Source of the DNA: a virus
Reading direction: 5' to 3' (one strand)
UHGV virus genome: UHGV-0123328
Length of the DNA stretch: 34,442 nucleotides
Shown here: in pieces, positions 1,319 through 17,980 of the stretch
Position numbering within the stretch: the stretch's first letter is position 1
Layout: the number at the start of each line of letters is the position of its first letter
The notes under the pieces: model-generated
The model's input: the letters and a program-made list of their open reading frames with translations, nothing else
What the model was told of the DNA's origin: nothing
Database searches by the model: none
Position numbers and translations under genes: made by a program

Positions 1319-1432
1319 ATATAGACACAATCCCTCCTGATTTACACAAGCCCTAAAACAATTTGTTTTCTACCTTTTGTTGATTGAGATAATAAGCCAC
1401 ATAAGAAAATAAATTGTTTCGGAGTGGTTGAA

Positions 1433-3093: not shown

Positions 3094-3229
3094 GTGTAAT
3101 TAGCTTAATCAATCAGTTGATAATGGCGGTCACAATTTGATTCTTTTCTATAAGAATCCGTTGATCGCCACTACTCTTCTTCCATACCTGCAATCATACC
3201 CTTAAATATCAATAGGTTACTGTTGTTTA

Positions 3230-3990
3230 AGCCAATAAGAAAACAACTAAATAACAGATCAACGAAACATCAACGCTTTCACCCGATTTGGTCTAAAAAA
3301 TTGACGTTTTCACACATCACTGCTTATACCCGTAATTCTACACAGCAGACAGCGCCACAGCGTCCAATTTTCACCACAGACGACCCAACACACTACCAAC
3401 AAAAACACACGCTCAAAATCGCTCCCGTTGCGTTACACAACCATATAAACAACTTATTTTCAGGTATAACAAAACAACTAAATAACACATATGCCATTCC
3501 CCATAACAACCAACCTCTTTATGGCAGGCTACCGAAAAGACCCACCTCTTCTTCTCAGGCTATCGGACAACCAACCTAACTTTCACAGGCAATCCGAAAA
3601 CATTCATACGCGCAATACCCACGACACGCCATTACCCAAACAGCGAAGAAACACCAGAATCACTGAAACCCCAACGAAGCCTGTAACCGCAAGGTTTCTC
3701 TCAATCCCAAAAGACACGAAACATAACAATCACGGGAAACGCCATTACCCAATACACGAATAACTACAAAAGCCCTTCACGCACTCCAGACAAACAACTC
3801 AAACACAATAACGAAAGCAATCGCCCACCTGCCATTACTCCATACACGGAGAAGAACAATCACCAAAACGACGAGAACACCCCATAGAAGAACCACCGCA
3901 AAACGAACGAAACCACATACACCGACAGAGAGAACAACACGCCCAATTCACCAACAGAAATAGTCGCCGTATAGAACGTTCTGGAAGGGG
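3230..3990 (+). other. A+C-rich, G-depleted non-coding tract with three copies of a GCCATTAC(C/T)C-N-ATACACG motif
   Basis: Extreme strand compositional skew visible by eye. Motif copies at about 3626-3641, 3738-3758 and 3829-3849. Only low-complexity ORFs on the plus strand and none of 60 aa or more on the minus strand. Confidence 0.6.
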
Positions 3991-4174
3991 GTGAGCATTA
4001 ACGCCTATAGAGAGGTTGAGACAGATAAAACACGAAGAAAACACAACATGTATAGCGAAGAAGCAAGGTATGTATAAGTGGGGAGGGAAGGAGGGGTGTC
4101 GCCTCCTTTTTCGTATTTATTCAACTCCTGATTTTATCCCCCGTAACACCCCTACGGTCAGCCTTCGGTCCATA

Positions 4175-4309
4175 CAGGGAAAAGGCTGCATCCCGCTACA
4201 GAAACGGCTGGGTTGCCTTCGGGGAACGGCTGGGGATTTTCAGGGAAACGGTCGAGTTGCCTGTGTGGATTTCGGGAAAAGGCTCGATGCCGGTTCAGGA
4301 ACGGCGGCG
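4175..4309 (+). repeat. Iteron-like direct repeat array 1 (six copies of C(A/G)GGRAAMRGC at 21-32 bp spacing)
   Basis: Copies start at 4175, 4199, 4220, 4241, 4273 and 4296: cagggaaaaggctg, cagaaacggctgg, cggggaacggctgg, cagggaaacggtcg, cgggaaaaggctcg, caggaacggcggcg. Confidence 0.7.
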
Positions 4310-4622
4310 TACCGGTATAGCGAGAGGGAGAGTTGCGGCTACCCACCTGTAATGTGCGGGAAGAAGAGAGGCGCTCACGTGCAGGCGAACTTACTTACCG
4401 CTGGATTCCCTCTGAATGCCCAGCTACAGCGTAATTGTGCCAGACAGCCAACGGGTCACAATCGATTTCAGTAGGTTTTCGGGGAGATGATTATTCTGCC
4501 CACCAGCCACCTTCGGCCACTAAATCAGAATAATGTAAAAAGTGTACTCGGTACTGAACCTGAAAACTCACTGCCAAAACCACATTCACCGGAATAAAAT
4601 CCTTTTTCGCCTGTGCGTTATT

Positions 4623-4660
4623 GCGATAATAACACCAACGAGAAAACAAGTTGTTTAAGG
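4623..4660 (+). promoter_or_regulatory. Conserved promoter/operator-like module, copy 1 (GCGATAAT…AGAAAACAAGTTGTTTAAGG; palindrome 4644-4656)
   Basis: Nearly identical to the copies at 6760-6796 and 7245-7284. Palindrome AAACA-agt-TGTTT ends 12 nt before ATG 4669. Confidence 0.6.
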
Positions 4661-4668
4661 ATTGCTTT

Positions 4669-4998
4669 ATGTTTGCAAATATCGACATCAACCAAATCAA
4701 GAAATTAACTCAAAAAGAGTTTGATCAGTTTTATGAGTTAGAAGGTTGGTCTTCCACTCTGATCAATTCGCGGTGGGTGCTTGAGCTGATGACTCGTGAT
4801 GACGCACCTGCTTTGATGATTTGCGACATGGGTGAAGATGCTGACTTTATGGATATGAGCGAATTTTGTGTGGACACATACAACCGCAGCCAGAAGTACT
4901 ACTTCACATGCGATAGCGAAAATGACGTGATTTCTAAGGTCTATCTTCACCTCGTCCAGCATTGGGACGTTCAGGAGTTTCTTGAAGTATTCGAGTAA
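4669..4998 (+). CDS. Hypothetical small protein (109 aa; ORF track starts at TTG 4651)
   Basis: ORF with AAGGA Shine-Dalgarno 8 nt upstream of ATG 4669; conserved upstream module; stem-loop 5008-5026 downstream. Confidence 0.6.
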   Translation: MFANIDINQIKKLTQKEFDQFYELEGWSSTLINSRWVLELMTRDDAPALMICDMGEDADFMDMSEFCVDTYNRSQKYYFTCDSENDVISKVYLHLVQHWDVQEFLEVFE

Positions 4999-5007
4999 CC
5001 CCAACCA

Positions 5008-5034
5008 AAGCCAGCATTGCTGGCTTAATTTCTC
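5008..5034 (+). terminator. Stem-loop / putative terminator (AAGCCAGC-att-GCTGGCTT followed by a T-rich run)
   Basis: 8-bp perfect stem and T-rich tail, 10 nt after the stop at 4998. Confidence 0.5.
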
Positions 5035-5151
5035 TATAGCCGCAGGGAAGAACCTGCATATCGCTCATGCACCTGATCAATATGCTTTGTAGCCGTTTTC
5101 TTACTGGTATTATTTACGCCATTGAGAAAACAAGTTGTTTACGGAGTTGTG

Positions 5152-5463
5152 ATGAAAAAATCATTGGTTCTTGGTCTGGACAAAGACCAGAAGAGAAAAG
5201 AGAAGCCTGCACTGGTTGCTCAATTAACTTTGCTAGACATCGTTGCCAATGGAACCTCTATTCGTCTGTTCCGTGAAACAGCGGTGTCTTTCGATAAAAA
5301 CACCTTTACTCGTTATGTAATGAATGTTCGTCGCCAGCGTGGAAAAGGCTGGATGGCATTTCAAAGAATGTGGCCGGAACATCAGCTCGAACTGGCTTTG
5401 ATGGAAGTTAACCGCGTGGCCCAGCAAGAAATTCAGAGAGCATCAGTGATGGCAATAGCCTGA
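5152..5463 (+). CDS. Hypothetical small basic protein (103 aa; ORF track start 5122)
   Basis: ACGGAG Shine-Dalgarno 5 nt upstream of ATG 5152; AAACA-agt-TGTTT palindrome at 5128-5140; terminator downstream. Confidence 0.6.
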   Translation: MKKSLVLGLDKDQKRKEKPALVAQLTLLDIVANGTSIRLFRETAVSFDKNTFTRYVMNVRRQRGKGWMAFQRMWPEHQLELALMEVNRVAQQEIQRASVMAIA

Positions 5464-5497
5464 TAATGTGCAAGTGGTAATTAGTCGACAGTACGAC

Positions 5498-5527
5498 AGC
5501 CCCGCCATCCTTACGGGGCTTTTTTGT
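5498..5527 (+). terminator. Rho-independent terminator
   Basis: AGCCCCG-ccatcctta-CGGGGCT followed by TTTTTTG. Confidence 0.7.
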
Positions 5528-5589
5528 ATTGTAAGTACATACTTACGATCATAGAATAGAAAAATAACCAATACACTACGGAGAGTGAA

Positions 5590-5985
5590 ATGACCGTTAA
5601 ACGCGAAAAACTGACAGTTGATGTTTACTATGCCTCTGAAACCGCCGAAGGTAAGAATGTGGCAAAAATCACCGTTGTTACGTACAACACCGAAACTGGT
5701 GCCGAAGTCCAGGCCAGTACGATCGTGCGTAAAGGTGATGCCTCCGGCGGCGAGTACGCGACTCAATACCAGTCTATTTTCGATGCAACTGACCCGCTGC
5801 TGCTGAAAATCGAGAACTACTTCCGCCAGGTTGATGAAGAGGTGTTTGAACCAATGATGAATATGGTTAACACCGTATTCGCCTCCAACCTGAATACCAA
5901 CACTACCTGGATTGGTCAGTACGGCCTGCGCATTACCTCTGGCATTCCTGCCGACACCTTAATCCCTGAAAGCGTATTCGCTTAA
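5590..5985 (+). CDS. Hypothetical protein (131 aa)
   Basis: ORF with GGAG Shine-Dalgarno; preceded by the GTAAGTA-ca-TACTTAC palindrome (5531-5546); hairpin plus T-run downstream (5994-6024). Confidence 0.6.
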   Translation: MTVKREKLTVDVYYASETAEGKNVAKITVVTYNTETGAEVQASTIVRKGDASGGEYATQYQSIFDATDPLLLKIENYFRQVDEEVFEPMMNMVNTVFASNLNTNTTWIGQYGLRITSGIPADTLIPESVFA

Positions 5986-5993
5986 TCCTCTTT

Positions 5994-6024
5994 AAATGGC
6001 GCGCAAACCGCGCCATTTTATTAT
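5994..6024 (+). terminator. Rho-independent terminator
   Basis: AAATGGCGCG-caaac-CGCGCCATTT followed by TATTAT. Confidence 0.65.
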
Positions 6025-6102
6025 GCCCGATAACAATTTGTTTTCTGCCTTATCTGATTTGTGAAAATGATTTCACTGAAGCAACTTAATAAGGAAACCA
6101 TC

Positions 6103-6477
6103 ATGGGACTTGATATCTATATCGAGACACAGCCTAAAAACGATCTGAATAACGAGGCATCCAGAAAGCAGGTTGCTTACTTCCGTAAGTTCAATGCGCT
6201 CGTTGGGTGGATGGAGCGCAACGTAGGTGAAGTCGAAAATTGTGAGCTTTTAGAATTAACGATGAATGACATTTGTTTTCTGAAGGCTCATTTGATGCAC
6301 ATAAACGAAAGTAATTGCGAAGAGTACTTGCCTACCCGGGAAGGTTTTTTCTTCGGCAGTCAGGAGTACGATGAAGGTTACTGGCATGATGTGGGGCAGT
6401 TGAAAGAGCTTGTGGAAGATCTGATTAAGAACCACGACTTTCACAATAACAGACTGACCTTCTGCGCCTGGTGGTAA
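6103..6477 (+). CDS. Hypothetical protein (124 aa from ATG 6103; ORF track starts at GTG 6061, alternative ATG 6067)
   Basis: Strong TAAGGAAACC Shine-Dalgarno before ATG 6103; AACA-att-TGTTT palindrome at 6031-6043 upstream. Confidence 0.55.
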   Translation: MGLDIYIETQPKNDLNNEASRKQVAYFRKFNALVGWMERNVGEVENCELLELTMNDICFLKAHLMHINESNCEEYLPTREGFFFGSQEYDEGYWHDVGQLKELVEDLIKNHDFHNNRLTFCAWW

Positions 6478-6479
6478 AT

Positions 6480-6623
6480 ATGGGCGATTTCAAGAAACGC
6501 CTGAAGGAAAGAGCCGAGATGGTCAGAAAGCAAAACGCCTCTTCTGTCATCAGATACGCAAGGCAGTTTAGTCGCAACAACAAATCAGTTGAGGAAAAGA
6601 TCCTTAGCGTAATCGGGCGATAA
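6480..6623 (+). CDS. Possible small basic protein (47 aa), translationally coupled to the preceding gene
   Basis: ATG 6480 lies 2 nt after the upstream stop; Lys/Arg-rich ORF ending immediately before stem-loop 6627-6654. Not in the ORF track because it is under 60 aa. Confidence 0.3.
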   Translation: MGDFKKRLKERAEMVRKQNASSVIRYARQFSRNNKSVEEKILSVIGR

Positions 6624-6626
6624 TTA

Positions 6627-6654
6627 TTAAGACCACCAGCATTGGTGGTCTTAA
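6627..6654 (+). terminator. Stem-loop TTAAGACCACCA-gcat-TGGTGGTCTTAA (putative terminator or RNA processing/stability element)
   Basis: 12-bp perfect stem. A covarying twin occurs at 7098-7125. Confidence 0.5.
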
Positions 6655-6759
6655 ATGACTTTTAATAACCGAAGGTTAGTTTGAAACCTGGCTATCAACT
6701 TCCAGAACCTTTCTTGTGTATTCAGCCTGTATTAACTTCTTTTATGCCTTATCTACACT

Positions 6760-6796
6760 GCGATAATTACACCAACAAGAAAACAACATGTTTACG
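6760..6796 (+). promoter_or_regulatory. Conserved promoter/operator-like module, copy 2 (palindrome AAACA-aca-TGTTT at 6781-6793)
   Basis: GCGATAATTACACCAACAAGAAAACAACATGTTTACG; near-identical to copies at 4623-4660 and 7245-7284. Confidence 0.6.
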
Positions 6797-6812
6797 CAGT
6801 GAGGATATGCTC

Positions 6813-7094
6813 ATGACTGATTTCACCATTACCCCTAAAGCACAAAATGTATTTCTTGAATCATGGCTGGACTTGCCGGAAACAGAACAGCAAGAAATGG
6901 ATCATGTGGATTATGACGAGCAGGTAAGCACGCGATTCTTCCACTTTGAGGGCTGCGTTTACGACATTGCCGACTTCATGCGAGATGACCGCTTCCCTGA
7001 ATGGCACGCCAGTTATCCACTAAACGCCTTCGCCATGCTGATGATCCGTGTGGGTGATTCAGGGGATACCATCGACATCGGTCTGCTCCACTAA
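6813..7094 (+). CDS. Hypothetical small acidic protein (93 aa; ORF track start 6681)
   Basis: GAGGA Shine-Dalgarno 7 nt upstream of ATG 6813; conserved module upstream; stem-loop downstream. Confidence 0.55.
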   Translation: MTDFTITPKAQNVFLESWLDLPETEQQEMDHVDYDEQVSTRFFHFEGCVYDIADFMRDDRFPEWHASYPLNAFAMLMIRVGDSGDTIDIGLLH

Positions 7095-7097
7095 AGA

Positions 7098-7125
7098 TTA
7101 AGGCCACCAATGCTGGTGGCCTTAA
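7098..7125 (+). terminator. Stem-loop TTAAGGCCACCA-atgc-TGGTGGCCTTAA
   Basis: 12-bp perfect stem, compensatory to the 6627-6654 copy (A:T pair replaced by G:C). Confidence 0.5.
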
Positions 7126-7244
7126 ATGACCATCCTGTTTCCCGCAGGCTAAAAACACCAACCTCTTACCTCCAGGCAACCGACAAACCCACCTGTTCCC
7201 GTCCGGCTACCGCAACTTTCCACTTTGACGCCTTATTCGTACAA

Positions 7245-7284
7245 CGATAATTAACGCCAACAAGAAAACAATTTGTTATTTACG
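7245..7284 (+). promoter_or_regulatory. Conserved promoter/operator-like module, copy 3 (palindrome 7266-7278)
   Basis: ACGATAATTAACGCCAACAAGAAAACAATTTGTTATTTACG upstream of ATG 7299. Confidence 0.6.
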
Positions 7285-7298
7285 ATAAGGAATTAATC

Positions 7299-7781
7299 AT
7301 GAATTTTATCGCTACTGTAAACGCACCCGCACATGGCAATATCGCTGTAACGTTCTCTGACATTGAAAAACGAGTACTTGGTGCCTGGCGTCACAATGAG
7401 ACGGTAGAACTGTCAGAACAAGAAAAATGCATTATTGCACGCGACATCATTGGCAATCGTCGTTACTCGCGGGTATTTGAGAAAGCATATGTGGTAAATT
7501 CTGGGTTCGGAACGTTCGTCTTTCCGGTGCGCTCAGGGCGATTCTGCCAGTCCAAGCTGATTGAGTTCGCTACGCAGATTTCTGTCTGGATTAAAACTCA
7601 ATCGTCGTTCAAATTTTCCGACGATGAAGCAGTATCGCAGGGGATGCGGATCGCCAACAATGCGATTAAATGCAAAAACATTACGTATACCGCTGGCGTT
7701 GATACATGGAAACTGTTTTGCGCTAACTTTATGCTGAATGTATACGCAAGCAACCGCATCCACATCCTTGATGGCGTGTAA
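7299..7781 (+). CDS. Hypothetical protein (160 aa)
   Basis: TAAGGA Shine-Dalgarno 7 nt upstream; conserved module upstream; terminator 7790-7813 downstream. Confidence 0.65.
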   Translation: MNFIATVNAPAHGNIAVTFSDIEKRVLGAWRHNETVELSEQEKCIIARDIIGNRRYSRVFEKAYVVNSGFGTFVFPVRSGRFCQSKLIEFATQISVWIKTQSSFKFSDDEAVSQGMRIANNAIKCKNITYTAGVDTWKLFCANFMLNVYASNRIHILDGV

Positions 7782-7789
7782 CTGAGAAG

Positions 7790-7813
7790 AGGGCCAGAAA
7801 CGGCCCTTTCTCT
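7790..7813 (+). terminator. Rho-independent terminator
   Basis: AGGGCC-agaaac-GGCCCT followed by TTCTCT. Confidence 0.6.
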
Positions 7814-7830
7814 ATAGCCACCAGCTGCCG

Positions 7831-7910
7831 CAGGGAAATTTTCAGAAACGGCGAGGAACGTATTCATGAGCCGACGGGAAACGGCCAGGATTTTTTCGGG
7901 AAACGGCGGG
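7831..7910 (+). repeat. Iteron-like direct repeat array 2 (four copies; same family and orientation as 4175-4309)
   Basis: cagggaaatt, cagaaacggcgagg, cgggaaacggccagg, cgggaaacggcggg. Extended match GGATTTT(TT)C(A/G)GGGAAACGG shared with array 1. Confidence 0.7.
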
Positions 7911-8335
7911 GGTCGCCTTTATGTAGAAAACTGAGCGGGAGAAACCCGGAATCGCGCCAGAAATTGCGTAGCGGCGCTGGGGTATCGCTGGTGGGGGTTT
8001 CAGCCCCTGGGCCATCCAGATAGCTTTCGCTATGTGATTATGTGAATCCGTGGGTAAATCACTGTAAGCGCGTACACGTTGCCCAACGTGGCAATCATAT
8101 GCGAGCGGACACAGAACAACACAAAATGCCGATCCGCGCCGACAATTAAACGCGGATCACATAGCAAGAATAAAAGCCAATGATTAACCATACACCATAA
8201 CGCAATATAACGCGATTTAAGCGCGTTAATGCGCTAAGTAATGGGTATGTACTGGTAAGGATATAAAAGCGCGTCTATGGCGTTATTTTGGCGCTTATTT
8301 TTATGTTGTTGGAGTGAGTTAAAGACAATAAAAAA

Positions 8336-9614: not shown

Positions 9615-10136
9615 TTAAAACGGAAGGATTCGTTCAACCCAATCGAAGAAAATAAGAATTTTTCTGCCGTCTTTCAACTTAAGTGTGACTAGGCAGGCAT
9701 CAACGCCATCTGACGTTCCCTCAATTTCGCGGCCGTCTGCCATGTAGACCCTTATAGATTGGCCGTTTTGATAAGCCTTGCGACATATCTTAAAAAAATC
9801 ACGACGTGATGGCTGGTTGTCTACATAGTCAGGGTGTATTGTTAGTCTCCCTTTGAAATCGTAATCAATGCCATCAATTACGCCTGATTCAATTGTGCTA
9901 ATGCGCTCAAGTGGGAGCCTTATACGATTTTCTTTGTCAAATGGAGTTGGACAAAGGTCAACTTTGTTACGAGATGACATGAGACCATAAACGTACATGC
10001 AAAACACTTGGCCGTCTTCGAGAGTGACTCTTACAGGAAATTTAGCCCCCCGCCAGAAGAGCAAGGTGCGTTCAGCATGTTCGTAGTCTCGCGGCCATAC
10101 TTCAGCCGGTATGCCGTAGGTGATGTCTTTAACCAT
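9615..10136 (-). CDS. Hypothetical protein (173 aa) with an internally repeated (R)VxLxDG motif
   Basis: ORF with its own terminator. Motifs VRVTLEDGQ, IRVYMADGR and VTLKLKDGR suggest repeated small beta-rich units. Confidence 0.6.
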   Translation of the reverse strand: MVKDITYGIPAEVWPRDYEHAERTLLFWRGAKFPVRVTLEDGQVFCMYVYGLMSSRNKVDLCPTPFDKENRIRLPLERISTIESGVIDGIDYDFKGRLTIHPDYVDNQPSRRDFFKICRKAYQNGQSIRVYMADGREIEGTSDGVDACLVTLKLKDGRKILIFFDWVERILPF

Positions 10137-17230: not shown

Positions 17231-17347
17231 CTTAGTAAGACATGCCCAGACCTAATTAAACACCCCAGAAAACAAGTTGGTTAGCAGATGCAGTAAACAA
17301 GTTGTTTTAGAGCGCATGGACGCGCTCTGTGTGTTTTAGAGGGATCT

Positions 17348-17980
17348 ATGACGGTCGAAAAAGACGAGGTAAAAACTCGCCTGACACCAGCGGAGTGGGC
17401 CGAAGCTGAAGCCAAATGGACGTCAGGCGAATATACACTCTCAAAGCTGGAGGAAGAGTACGGCATTCGTCGTGAAACACTCTCCAGACATTTCAAAAAG
17501 CGAGGATTAGAGAAAGGCGCGGACTCTGTTGGGAAGATGGTTCGTGAGTCTCTTAAATCTGACGCAGAGCTTCGCGCTAAAGCCCGTGCGGAAAAGATAG
17601 AAGAACGTCGTACACGTTATGACGGCTGGGCGTATGCGTTGGGGCAGATGGTGATGGTCGAAGTCACTACGGCCAAACGTGAGGGTAAGCCTTTAGGGGC
17701 GATTGAGGATTCTCTCAAGAGCTTACAGAGAGCCAGTAATACCCTTGCAAAATGCTTTGAAGTTTCGTCCAAAGCATTGGGCATGGATCATGCGGAAAAT
17801 GACGAGGAAGAAATTCCGAACCTGGTATTTGGTGAGCTTACGCCTTCCCAGGTGGCGAAATTACGTCAGGAAGACGACGAGCCTGAAATCATCGATGACG
17901 AATTGCTTGAGACGTTGGAAGAAGAAGCTCTAAGCGAATTTGATGCGACAGATGATGGAAGTGAAGGGGAGGACGAATAA
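17348..17980 (+). CDS. Terminase small subunit (210 aa), putative
   Basis: Immediately upstream of and overlapping the large terminase (TAATG). N-terminal helix-turn-helix-like segment (YTLSKLEEEYGIRRETLSRHFKKRG) and strongly acidic C-terminus. Confidence 0.6.
   Translation: MTVEKDEVKTRLTPAEWAEAEAKWTSGEYTLSKLEEEYGIRRETLSRHFKKRGLEKGADSVGKMVRESLKSDAELRAKARAEKIEERRTRYDGWAYALGQMVMVEVTTAKREGKPLGAIEDSLKSLQRASNTLAKCFEVSSKALGMDHAENDEEEIPNLVFGELTPSQVAKLRQEDDEPEIIDDELLETLEEEALSEFDATDDGSEGEDE

Follow-up and report, generated by a model that had tools for sequence, protein, structure and literature searches.

The virus genome UHGV-0123328 (34,442 nucleotides, referred to here as the window) carries between positions 4,669 and 7,781 an array of seven small genes, named A to G, all of them on the + strand and at the coordinates proposed in a first-pass annotation made from the sequence. 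Region 4400-8000 showed 98% identity to Escherichia phage Cyrano, which is the phage-plasmid pLF82 of E. coli LF82, and matched 12 phage records and 722 plasmid records, the latter from Klebsiella, Escherichia, Enterobacter, Yersinia and Salmonella, mostly non-mobilizable and 98-137 kb long among those listed. Part of the array was also present in Yersinia pestis pMT1. Along the window, a plasmid-borne methionyl-tRNA synthetase gene is followed by the array, an FljA-family gene, a UvsW-like helicase gene, ParB-like genes and then terminase and tail genes. By its near-identity to Cyrano/pLF82 and to plasmid records the window is assigned to an SSU5/pHCM2/Cyrano-type phage-plasmid of E. coli, and the integrated prophage assumed in the first-pass annotation was the wrong frame.

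The features of the array and its surroundings are collected in Table 1. All seven open reading frames (ORFs) were under purifying selection, with ratios of non-synonymous to synonymous substitution rates (dN/dS) of 0.03-0.32 against divergent alleles of relatives. This includes the 47-amino-acid ORF E, put forward at first only as a possible gene, with 8 non-synonymous versus 21 synonymous differences against the related locus L036 and a dN/dS of 0.03. Gene C was the fastest-evolving cassette, with alleles of 37-98% identity and a dN/dS of about 0.3. No similarity was detected among the seven proteins, the best cross-match having E=0.39; therefore, the flanking sequences that they share are not a by-product of gene duplication. 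As D and E have a single predicted promoter and a single hairpin, the seven genes form six units (A, B, C, D-E, F and G).

Table 1. Features of the array and of related sites in the window. Promoter, operator and terminator designations are predictions; SD, Shine-Dalgarno sequence; aa, amino acids; pI, isoelectric point; dG, folding free energy in kcal/mol; z, z score of the fold.
Feature	Positions	Strand	Description
Palindrome pair at gene 1433-1732	1355-1420	+	two palindromes, 51 bp apart, around the -10; outside the array, same putative regulon
Left iteron-like cluster	4179-4305	+	six G(G/A)AA(A/C)GG(C/T) repeats, ~22 nt spacing
Module of cassette A	4601-4668	+	extended -10 TGCGATAAT 4622-4630; palindrome AAAACAAGTTGTTTA 4643-4657 (0 mismatches), then SD AAGGA; kept in relatives
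Gene A	4669-4998	+	109 aa, pI 4.2, phrog_7645; in 35/81 relatives; dN/dS 0.03-0.10
Hairpin after A	5008-5026	+	core CCAGCATTGCTGG, no clear U-tract; dG -12.4, z -3.0
Module of cassette B	5085-5151	+	TGGTATTAT 5105-5113; palindrome 5127-5141; >=90% column conservation in 33 distinct sequences
Gene B	5152-5463	+	103 aa, pI 10.5, phrog_5125; near-core, 77/81 relatives
Canonical intrinsic terminator after B	5498-5526	+	GC stem + U6; dG -21.9, z -5.5
Promoter of cassette C	5529-5557	+	TTGTAA-17-TAGAAT; palindrome GTAAGT-ACAT-ACTTAC 5531-5546
Gene C	5590-5985	+	131 aa, pI 4.5, phrog_2473; 74/81 loci
Terminator after C	5994-6022	+	GGCGCG stem + UUUUAUU; dG -14.9, z -3.3
Promoter of D-E unit	6030-6068	+	palindrome ATAACAATTTGTTTT 6030-6044 over -35; TGTGAAAAT 6060-6068
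Gene D	6103-6477	+	124 aa; broad family, invariant MGLD..FRK.N..W..PT.GFFFGS; 37/81 relatives
Gene E	6480-6623	+	47 aa, pI 11; start overlaps D stop at TAAATATG; 30/81 loci
Hairpin after E	6627-6654	+	dG -18, z -6.0; 93% match to 7098-7125; arm of the repeat where F was gained or lost (junction in L002)
Module of F	6738-6812	+	TGCGATAAT 6759-6767; palindrome 6780-6794
Gene F	6813-7094	+	93 aa, pI 4.2, phrog_1845; 59/81 loci
Hairpin after F	7098-7125	+	dG -20.1, z -6.7
Tandem repeats, F/G spacer	7129-7216	+	three 30-nt repeats, family D2; slot for other cargo in relatives
Module of G	7223-7298	+	TTGACG; GATAAT 7246-7251; palindrome 7265-7279
Gene G	7299-7781	+	160 aa, pI 9.2, phrog_1641; 81/81 relatives; confined to SSU5-type elements
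Hairpin after G	7784-7812	+	dG -17.7, z -3.5
Right iteron-like cluster	7797-7907	+	four GAAACGGC repeats, orientation as in left cluster; closes the array
Palindrome pair at small terminase gene (17348-17980)	17269-17308	+	two palindromes, 25 bp apart, 5' of the gene

The sequences upstream of A, B, F and G form a family of 55-nt direct repeats with 60-73% identity (4601-4655, 5085-5139, 6738-6792 and 7223-7277). With up to 3 mismatches allowed, the core of this module, GAAAACAANTTGTTTA, had 22 matches in the window versus 2.08 expected, a number reached in none of 100 shuffles. Its invariant part is a 15-bp palindrome, AAAACA-N3-TGTTT(T/A), located about 10 nt 3' of an extended -10 (TGnGATAAT or TGnTATTAT, with a weak -35 and conserved in relatives) and directly 5' of the Shine-Dalgarno sequence. 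The module was at least 90% conserved per column across distinct sequences whose coding regions had a synonymous divergence (dS) above 1.4 or saturated, and the palindrome was nearly invariant across genera despite saturated synonymous sites. The proposal that each gene has its own copy of a conserved upstream module stands in full for A, B, F and G; D has only the palindrome, placed over its -35, C has a different promoter with a palindrome of its own, and E shares the promoter of D.

Nor was the module a private element of the array, as first supposed, its conserved part having the distribution expected for a palindromic operator of a genome-wide regulon. In the whole Cyrano genome the palindrome was detected at 19 sites with up to 2 mismatches, compared to 0-2 in shuffles, most of them 25-90 nt 5' of + strand genes and with the same fixed geometry of -10, about 10 nt, palindrome and Shine-Dalgarno sequence, a disposition that at the sequence level has the character of a repressor site. 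The genes behind these sites are the small terminase gene terS (two sites, 25 bp apart), a type-Ib parA, a replicative helicase gene, cobT, the gene for the beta subunit of ribonucleotide reductase (RNR), a TciA-like gene, several genes annotated without function, gene 1433 (two sites, 51 bp apart) and, within the array, A, B, D, F and G. In the SSU5, Klebsiella and Yersinia relatives a pair of operators spaced by 51 bp is likewise found at the F promoter, the first over the -35 and the second near +5. Thus the operator occupies the same -35 position in gene 1433 and in the F of these relatives as in D of the window, but there as O1 of a dual-operator promoter, whereas D in the window is without O2. 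The palindrome, the GAAACGGC repeats and tandem repeats of about 27 nt recur in a distant metagenomic contig, L102, whose F and C are only 42% and 34% identical to their homologues in the window. A full-text literature search with the palindrome string found no paper, and Rfam models gave no match at the gathering threshold against the whole window.

The palindrome showed no tendency to fold as RNA (z +0.3 and +0.45) and some of its copies lie 5' of the -35 or of the inferred transcription start; therefore, we infer that it is a DNA operator for a dimeric repressor encoded by the element. The same motif could also act in RNA, as a translational operator in the 5' untranslated region recognized by an RNA-binding repressor, either the FljA-like protein or a RegA-like factor. 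Its position in A, B, F and G, immediately 5' of the Shine-Dalgarno sequence and 11-20 nt before the ATG, would suit such a role, and an FljA-family protein (PF03614, E=2e-79) is encoded 2 kb away; in Salmonella, the leader of the fliC mRNA is the target of FljA. This is nevertheless highly improbable, given a symmetric palindrome without RNA folding, conserved copies over the -35 of D, of F in the relatives and of gene 1433, that is 5' of the inferred start, pairs spaced by 51 bp, or about five helical turns, and no copy of the palindrome near the FljA-like gene. The FljA-family protein, annotated as 'repressor of phase-1 flagellin', is full length, is encoded on the - strand at 9615-10136 and is 60-99% identical in all relatives.

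Cassette C appears to be wired separately. The AAAACA palindrome is absent from its promoter, where a GTAAG-N2-CTTAC motif was detected instead. In Cyrano this motif occurs in only one other place, just 3' of the -10 in the promoter of CYRAN_45, a helix-turn-helix protein that the Cyrano authors describe as a putative repressor. In Klebsiella phage pJN2-26 a 13-mer, GTAAGTACTTACC, is identical at the promoter of the repressor itself and at that of C. The CI-like repressor differs between genera (56-66% identity), and the palindromes at the C promoter differ too. It is predicted from these sites that C carries the operator of the CI-like immunity repressor in place of the AAAACA palindrome. The C promoter of L102 also has a different palindrome, TATGTAAGCGAATACATA.

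At their 3' ends, the six units are closed by stable hairpins, each just 3' of a stop codon, with free energies of -12.4 to -21.9 kcal/mol and z scores of -3.0 to -6.7. Between 3000 and 10500, 16 terminator-like sites were counted versus 7.2 expected from shuffles. The core of the hairpin after A (CCAGCATTGCTGG) is the same as in those after E and F. A stem-loop or terminator had been attributed to every gene; this holds for the units, D and E having one in common, and the canonical look of an intrinsic terminator with a clear U-tract is restricted to B and C.

To place these features in context, 87 related loci were collected and architectures were scored in the 81 with enough upstream sequence; a scan of genome contigs with G gave 6 loci, and IMG/VR loci were used for comparison. 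The order A-B-C-D-E-F-G was constant in the 81 loci, which nevertheless fell into 11 architectures, so that presence/absence polymorphism, suggested beforehand as a check, was indeed seen. A, D and E were the variable members (35, 37 and 30 of 81 loci), whereas B-C-(F)-G formed a backbone conserved across genera; the array is then a fixed block in part only. Three indels had their junctions inside repeats, those of F within the 28-nt hairpin repeat (6627-6658 = 7097-7129), those of D-E within the -35 repeat (6034-6055 = 6734-6755) and those of A within the operator repeat (4632-4664 = 5116-5148), in stretches of 22-33 nt that align to both repeat copies. Mosaic loci switched at the module boundaries: in L005, identity was 95-100% over A, 65-80% over B and 42-62% over C, and then 100% from about 6000 on, and in L024 it rose from 65-82% over F to 100% from 7188 on. 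The spacer between F and G held other cargo in relatives, with proteins of 310, 232, 83 and 80 amino acids and minus-strand genes for 90 and 62 amino acids, and at least 15 unrelated families were found behind operator-bearing promoters in the neighbourhood of the array. The modularity that had been likened to the hyperplastic regions of T4-like phages was therefore largely confirmed, as indel and mosaic breakpoints fell inside promoter/operator or hairpin repeats.

A plainer account would be that of an ordinary conserved early operon region, in which the shared sequence is an early-promoter consensus and the differences between relatives arose by random deletion and divergence. The constant gene order, the presence of B, C and G in 74-81 of the 81 loci and the genome-wide rather than array-only occurrence of the palindrome are all compatible with it. 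We consider it unlikely, as it does not predict three independent indels with junctions in stretches that align to both repeat copies, mosaics that jump from 42-80% to 100% identity at module boundaries, or unrelated cargo behind the same module.

Some further peculiarities of the relatives can be mentioned here. Where the window has its 30-nt repeats in the F/G spacer, SSU5 and some relatives have a minus-strand gene for a 90-amino-acid protein (L003 6663-6935, L036 6497-6769 and L009 6491-6763), annotated in SSU5 as 'putative repressor-like protein'. In Klebsiella-type arrays F comes directly after D, in the place of E. L102, the metagenome contig SRR5997683_39018 of 7.2 kb, has small + strand genes about 125 nt apart, AAAACA...TGTTT palindromes and a hairpin after each gene.

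Expression was taken from table S1 of the LF82 study (PMC9928086), which gives normalised, gene-level counts at low coverage for the homologues CYRAN_105-111 of this relative of the window element. In the lysogen grown overnight in LB, the counts were 12.8 for A, 12.2 for B, 17.0 for C, 5.7 for D, 57.9 for E, 6.7 for F and 25.5 for G, for a prophage median of 9.8 (PMC9928086). Five of the seven genes (A, B, C, D and F) were thus less than 2-fold away from the median, G was 2.6-fold above it and E, about 6-fold above, was the sole array gene clearly expressed. Inside macrophages, compared to LB, A increased about 10-fold or more, F about 8-fold and the others about 3-6-fold (PMC9928086); log2 levels there were 5.7-7.8 for A, F and G versus 3.9-5.6 for terS and 3.0-4.1 for the large terminase gene terL. 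A UmuD-like SOS gene was strongly increased in the same samples. This pattern fits repression in the lysogen followed by early derepression, ahead of the late genes measured. Nor did the gene-level data fit a single polycistronic message, an outcome that would have spoken against independent cassettes (E 58 vs. D 5.7, G 25 vs. F 6.7). E was about 10-fold above D, its overlapping upstream neighbour, a difference that suggests either an internal promoter or, with the 6627-6654 hairpin as its end, a stable 3' fragment.

The low counts in the lysogen and the early rise argue not only against a single message but also against most of these genes being morons, i.e. lysogenic-conversion genes that the resident plasmid-prophage expresses to the advantage of its host, in which case the palindrome would be unrelated or activating. 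The layout of promoter, gene and terminator fits the definition of a moron discussed in PMC2839356, and E (CYRAN_109) is listed as one in the Cyrano study, being alone among the array genes above its 5-fold cut-off (PMC9928086); G is raised to a lesser extent. For the array as a whole such an identity is very unlikely, since five genes stay near the lysogen median (5.7-17 vs. 9.8), the palindrome is also found 5' of clearly lytic genes (terS, the helicase gene and the RNR beta gene) and its place 3' of the -10 is a repressing one.

Regarding the protein that would bind the palindrome, the best candidate is CYRAN_29, a protein of 119 amino acids encoded after ParA, because in the E. coli as well as the Klebsiella elements its operon promoter has the palindrome arranged in the standard geometry, because it is expressed in the lysogen, because it shows at least 90% identity in 736 of 797 plasmid records, matching the invariance of the operator, and because its sequence looks like that of a basic tail with a ribbon-helix-helix after it. 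Pfam and PDB searches detected no ribbon-helix-helix or ParB domain in it. Other candidates were rejected. CYRAN_98 (L089 44270-44700), annotated as 'LexA-like peptidase S24', has a UmuD-like S24 domain, is preceded by a host LexA box, TACTGTATGTGTATACAGTA, and is not a repressor; the promoter of the FljA-like gene lacks the palindrome; and the KdgR-type consensus of a host factor, AAACA-N-TGTTT, has the wrong spacing. CYRAN_98 was the most strongly stress-induced gene on the element. CYRAN_43 (L088 40268-40822), with 184 amino acids, no known domain and expression about 720-fold above the prophage median in the lysogen, adjoins the integrase and the CI-like repressor and is a further candidate for a regulator or an exclusion factor.

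The array is framed by two clusters of iteron-like repeats (Table 1). In the whole Cyrano genome these were the only two (95336-95455 and 98956-99059), and they bracket its array, both clusters pointing the same way; GAAACGGC copies also flank the array of L102. The locus could then be primarily a cis-acting region of the plasmid, such as an origin, an incompatibility determinant or a centromere, with the GAAACGGC clusters and 30-nt repeats as its marks and the genes as passengers in a tolerant, non-essential spacer. The bracketing itself, its persistence together with tandem repeats in L102 and the presence just upstream of a 900-nt ORF-free A/C-rich tract all point in this direction. As the primary nature of the locus it is hardly likely, because the genes are under purifying selection and have strongly conserved regulatory modules, RepA is encoded more than 30 kb away in Cyrano and any binding of replication or partition proteins by the repeats would be conjectural; it is in any case compatible with repressor-controlled, exchangeable units and does not exclude them.

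The A/C-rich tract spans positions 3150-4050, about 900 nt with no credible ORF, and is rich in A and C on the + strand, its strand asymmetry being extreme (GC skew of -0.44 to -0.49, AT skew of up to +0.58). It has repeats of 29-31 nt inside, a module-like AAGCCAATAAGAAAACAACT (3229-3248) near its start and a terminator-like hairpin (4085-4111) at its end, and may correspond to a long RNA without structure or to a tract resembling an origin or a centromere. The tandem repeats of about 30 nt (ACCAACCT...CAGGCTACCGAAAA) are found both in this tract (3509-3599) and just 5' of the promoter of the last cassette (7129-7216), an arrangement that L102 keeps with 27-nt units (1590 and 5865-5941). Further upstream, the methionyl-tRNA synthetase gene, here on a phage-plasmid, is present as its 3' part (21-1271) and is complete in Cyrano, with 678 amino acids.

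The functions of the seven proteins were approached by searches against Pfam, PHROGs, NCBIfam and PADLOC, which returned only PHROG families of unknown function, in agreement with the first reading that had recognized no motif in them. Neither ArdA, Antirestrict nor other anti-defence families were detected in the seven proteins by Pfam, NCBIfam and PADLOC, no solved relatives of them were found, and family profiles of F and D gave nothing meaningful against PDB and Pfam. The F family is wide, with proteins of about 90 amino acids and a conserved W..DL..EFDY..FFRY.G..YDL..FMR..WHG. Structure prediction, proposed for every protein, was run on C and G and gave AlphaFold2 models with mean confidence (pLDDT) values of 77.8 and 85.5, respectively, with no significant structural neighbours. 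Weak CARF-like matches of C were not supported, as its model does not have the Rossmann-like CARF fold, and an identity as a CARF or cyclic-oligonucleotide-binding protein was rejected. The neighbourhoods of six D-family members were examined: one member is encoded two genes 5' of ardA on an IncI-like plasmid and another directly upstream of an Antirestrict-family (klcA-type) gene in a conjugative element, while two are in early/DNA-metabolism regions of large phages and two among small unannotated genes. By guilt-by-association this is a modest hint at a role in the entry phase.

Taken together, the array is probably a variable accessory locus made of repressor-controlled units, which are shuffled at shared regulatory repeats and act at entry or early in infection. 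Five units (A, B, D-E, F and G) would each have a sigma-70 promoter with an extended -10 and an overlapping 15-bp palindrome bound by a dimeric repressor of the element, which would also hold about a dozen further promoters, including those of terS, parA, the helicase gene, the RNR beta gene and gene 1433; the sixth, C, would instead be controlled through an operator of the CI-like immunity repressor. In the plasmid, i.e. lysogenic, state the units would be off, and on entry into a naive cell or on induction, with the repressor absent or inactivated, they would fire independently and early. Because each unit is flanked by the same regulatory sequences of 40-70 bp, homologous recombination between co-infecting or co-resident relatives could insert, delete or replace whole units and leave their neighbours undisturbed. 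The proteins would most likely act at entry or in early infection, in anti-defence, host modulation or establishment. The initial picture changes in three respects: the repeat appears as the operator of a genome-wide regulon, one cassette would answer to the immunity repressor, and anti-defence stays hypothetical.

Several observations weigh against this interpretation. Both the promoter activity of the modules and repression through the palindrome are read from the sequence: the module promoters were missed by a consensus scan, and overall there was no enrichment of promoter-like sites (8 vs. 14.5 expected). Termination is likewise a prediction, four of the six hairpins being without a U-tract. 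The RNA-seq counts were obtained on a relative and at low coverage; the low values in the lysogen may be due to weak promoters and not to repression, and the parA operon, with the same palindrome, is yet expressed in the lysogen at 36-101. The stable B-C-(F)-G backbone means that part of the array behaves as a fixed block. Finally, the role in host takeover or anti-defence that had been suggested for these genes was not borne out by any match to a known anti-defence family or fold, and anti-restriction genes were found in only two of the six D-family contexts examined. An anti-defence role can still be hypothesized from the silence in the lysogen, the early rise under stress and the D relatives beside ardA and Antirestrict genes.

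The organization recalls the promoter-early stem-loop (PeSL) cassettes in the hyperplastic regions of T4-like phages (Arbiol et al., 2010, PMC2839356; Comeau et al., 2014, PMC4122927), where small orphan genes flanked by repeated sigma-70-type promoters and stem-loop elements form transcriptionally insulated units. Indels and replacements between close relatives with crossovers inside the repeated elements are described there (PMC2839356) and were found here too. Excised mini-circles of the cassettes are a further trait of PeSLs. However, PeSLs belong to lytic T4-like myoviruses and the present array to a temperate siphovirus-type phage-plasmid; the PeSL is one composite motif, whereas here hairpins and promoters are separate elements, with the hairpins 60-170 nt upstream of the next promoter; and the conserved core is here a palindromic operator common to replication, partition and packaging genes, with no sequence similarity to PeSLs.

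At the sequence level, a repeated promoter with the site of one plasmid-encoded repressor, heading several small genes plus replication and regulatory genes, is also the design of the CUP/ArdK regulon in the leading region of IncN plasmids, the logic of which is transient expression on entry into a new cell. In contrast to that regulon, no ArdK, ArdA or ArdB homologue was found here, the operator sequence differs and the element would enter as a virion and not by conjugation, the only link being the D-family relatives beside ardA/klcA-type genes. The phage-plasmid P1 has a C1 repressor with many dispersed operators, often overlapping the promoters of single accessory or early genes, and its operator is an asymmetric 17-mer. 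The likeness is that of a phage-plasmid with operators of one repressor scattered genome-wide, here as judged by sequence; the symmetric 15-mer, the lack of relation to C1 and the separate CI-like repressor for C set the present element apart. KorB of RK2, omega of pSM19035 and ParG of TP228 exemplify global repression by partition or maintenance proteins. As in these systems, a short palindrome marks the par operon promoter along with many others, and the candidate binder would be the small protein after ParA; different from them, the targets here include lytic genes of the phage. The morons of lambdoid prophages have no conserved flanking sequences and are expressed in the lysogen. The array shares with them single genes inserted between others with, by their sequence, a promoter and a terminator of their own, and differs in that its flanks are conserved repeats and that five of the seven genes stay within 2-fold of the lysogen median.

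A bolder version of the scheme, which we regard as doubtful although attractive for its consequences, takes the palindrome as the operator of CYRAN_29. A partition repressor, and not the CI-like one, would then silence about 18 promoters for packaging, replication, nucleotide metabolism and the array, and the latter would be a recombination-driven arsenal of entry-phase anti-defence genes. If so, plasmid maintenance and the silencing of phage genes would be coupled through one protein, and the array would be the counterpart, carried in by a virion, of the leading region in conjugative plasmids.

Phage-plasmids of the SSU5/pHCM2 type are common in clinical Escherichia, Klebsiella, Enterobacter and Salmonella, and their regulation is largely undescribed. 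For these elements, the analysis puts forward a specific operator sequence together with the regulon predicted for it, a cassette, C, with wiring of its own that is tied by prediction to the immunity repressor, a defined recombination hotspot with cargo that differs between otherwise near-identical plasmids, and a set of candidate proteins that are small, conserved and induced early, with relatives of one of them encoded next to anti-restriction genes. Gene shuffling by way of regulatory repeats, known from lytic T4-like phages and IncN plasmids, would thus be extended to temperate phage-plasmids.

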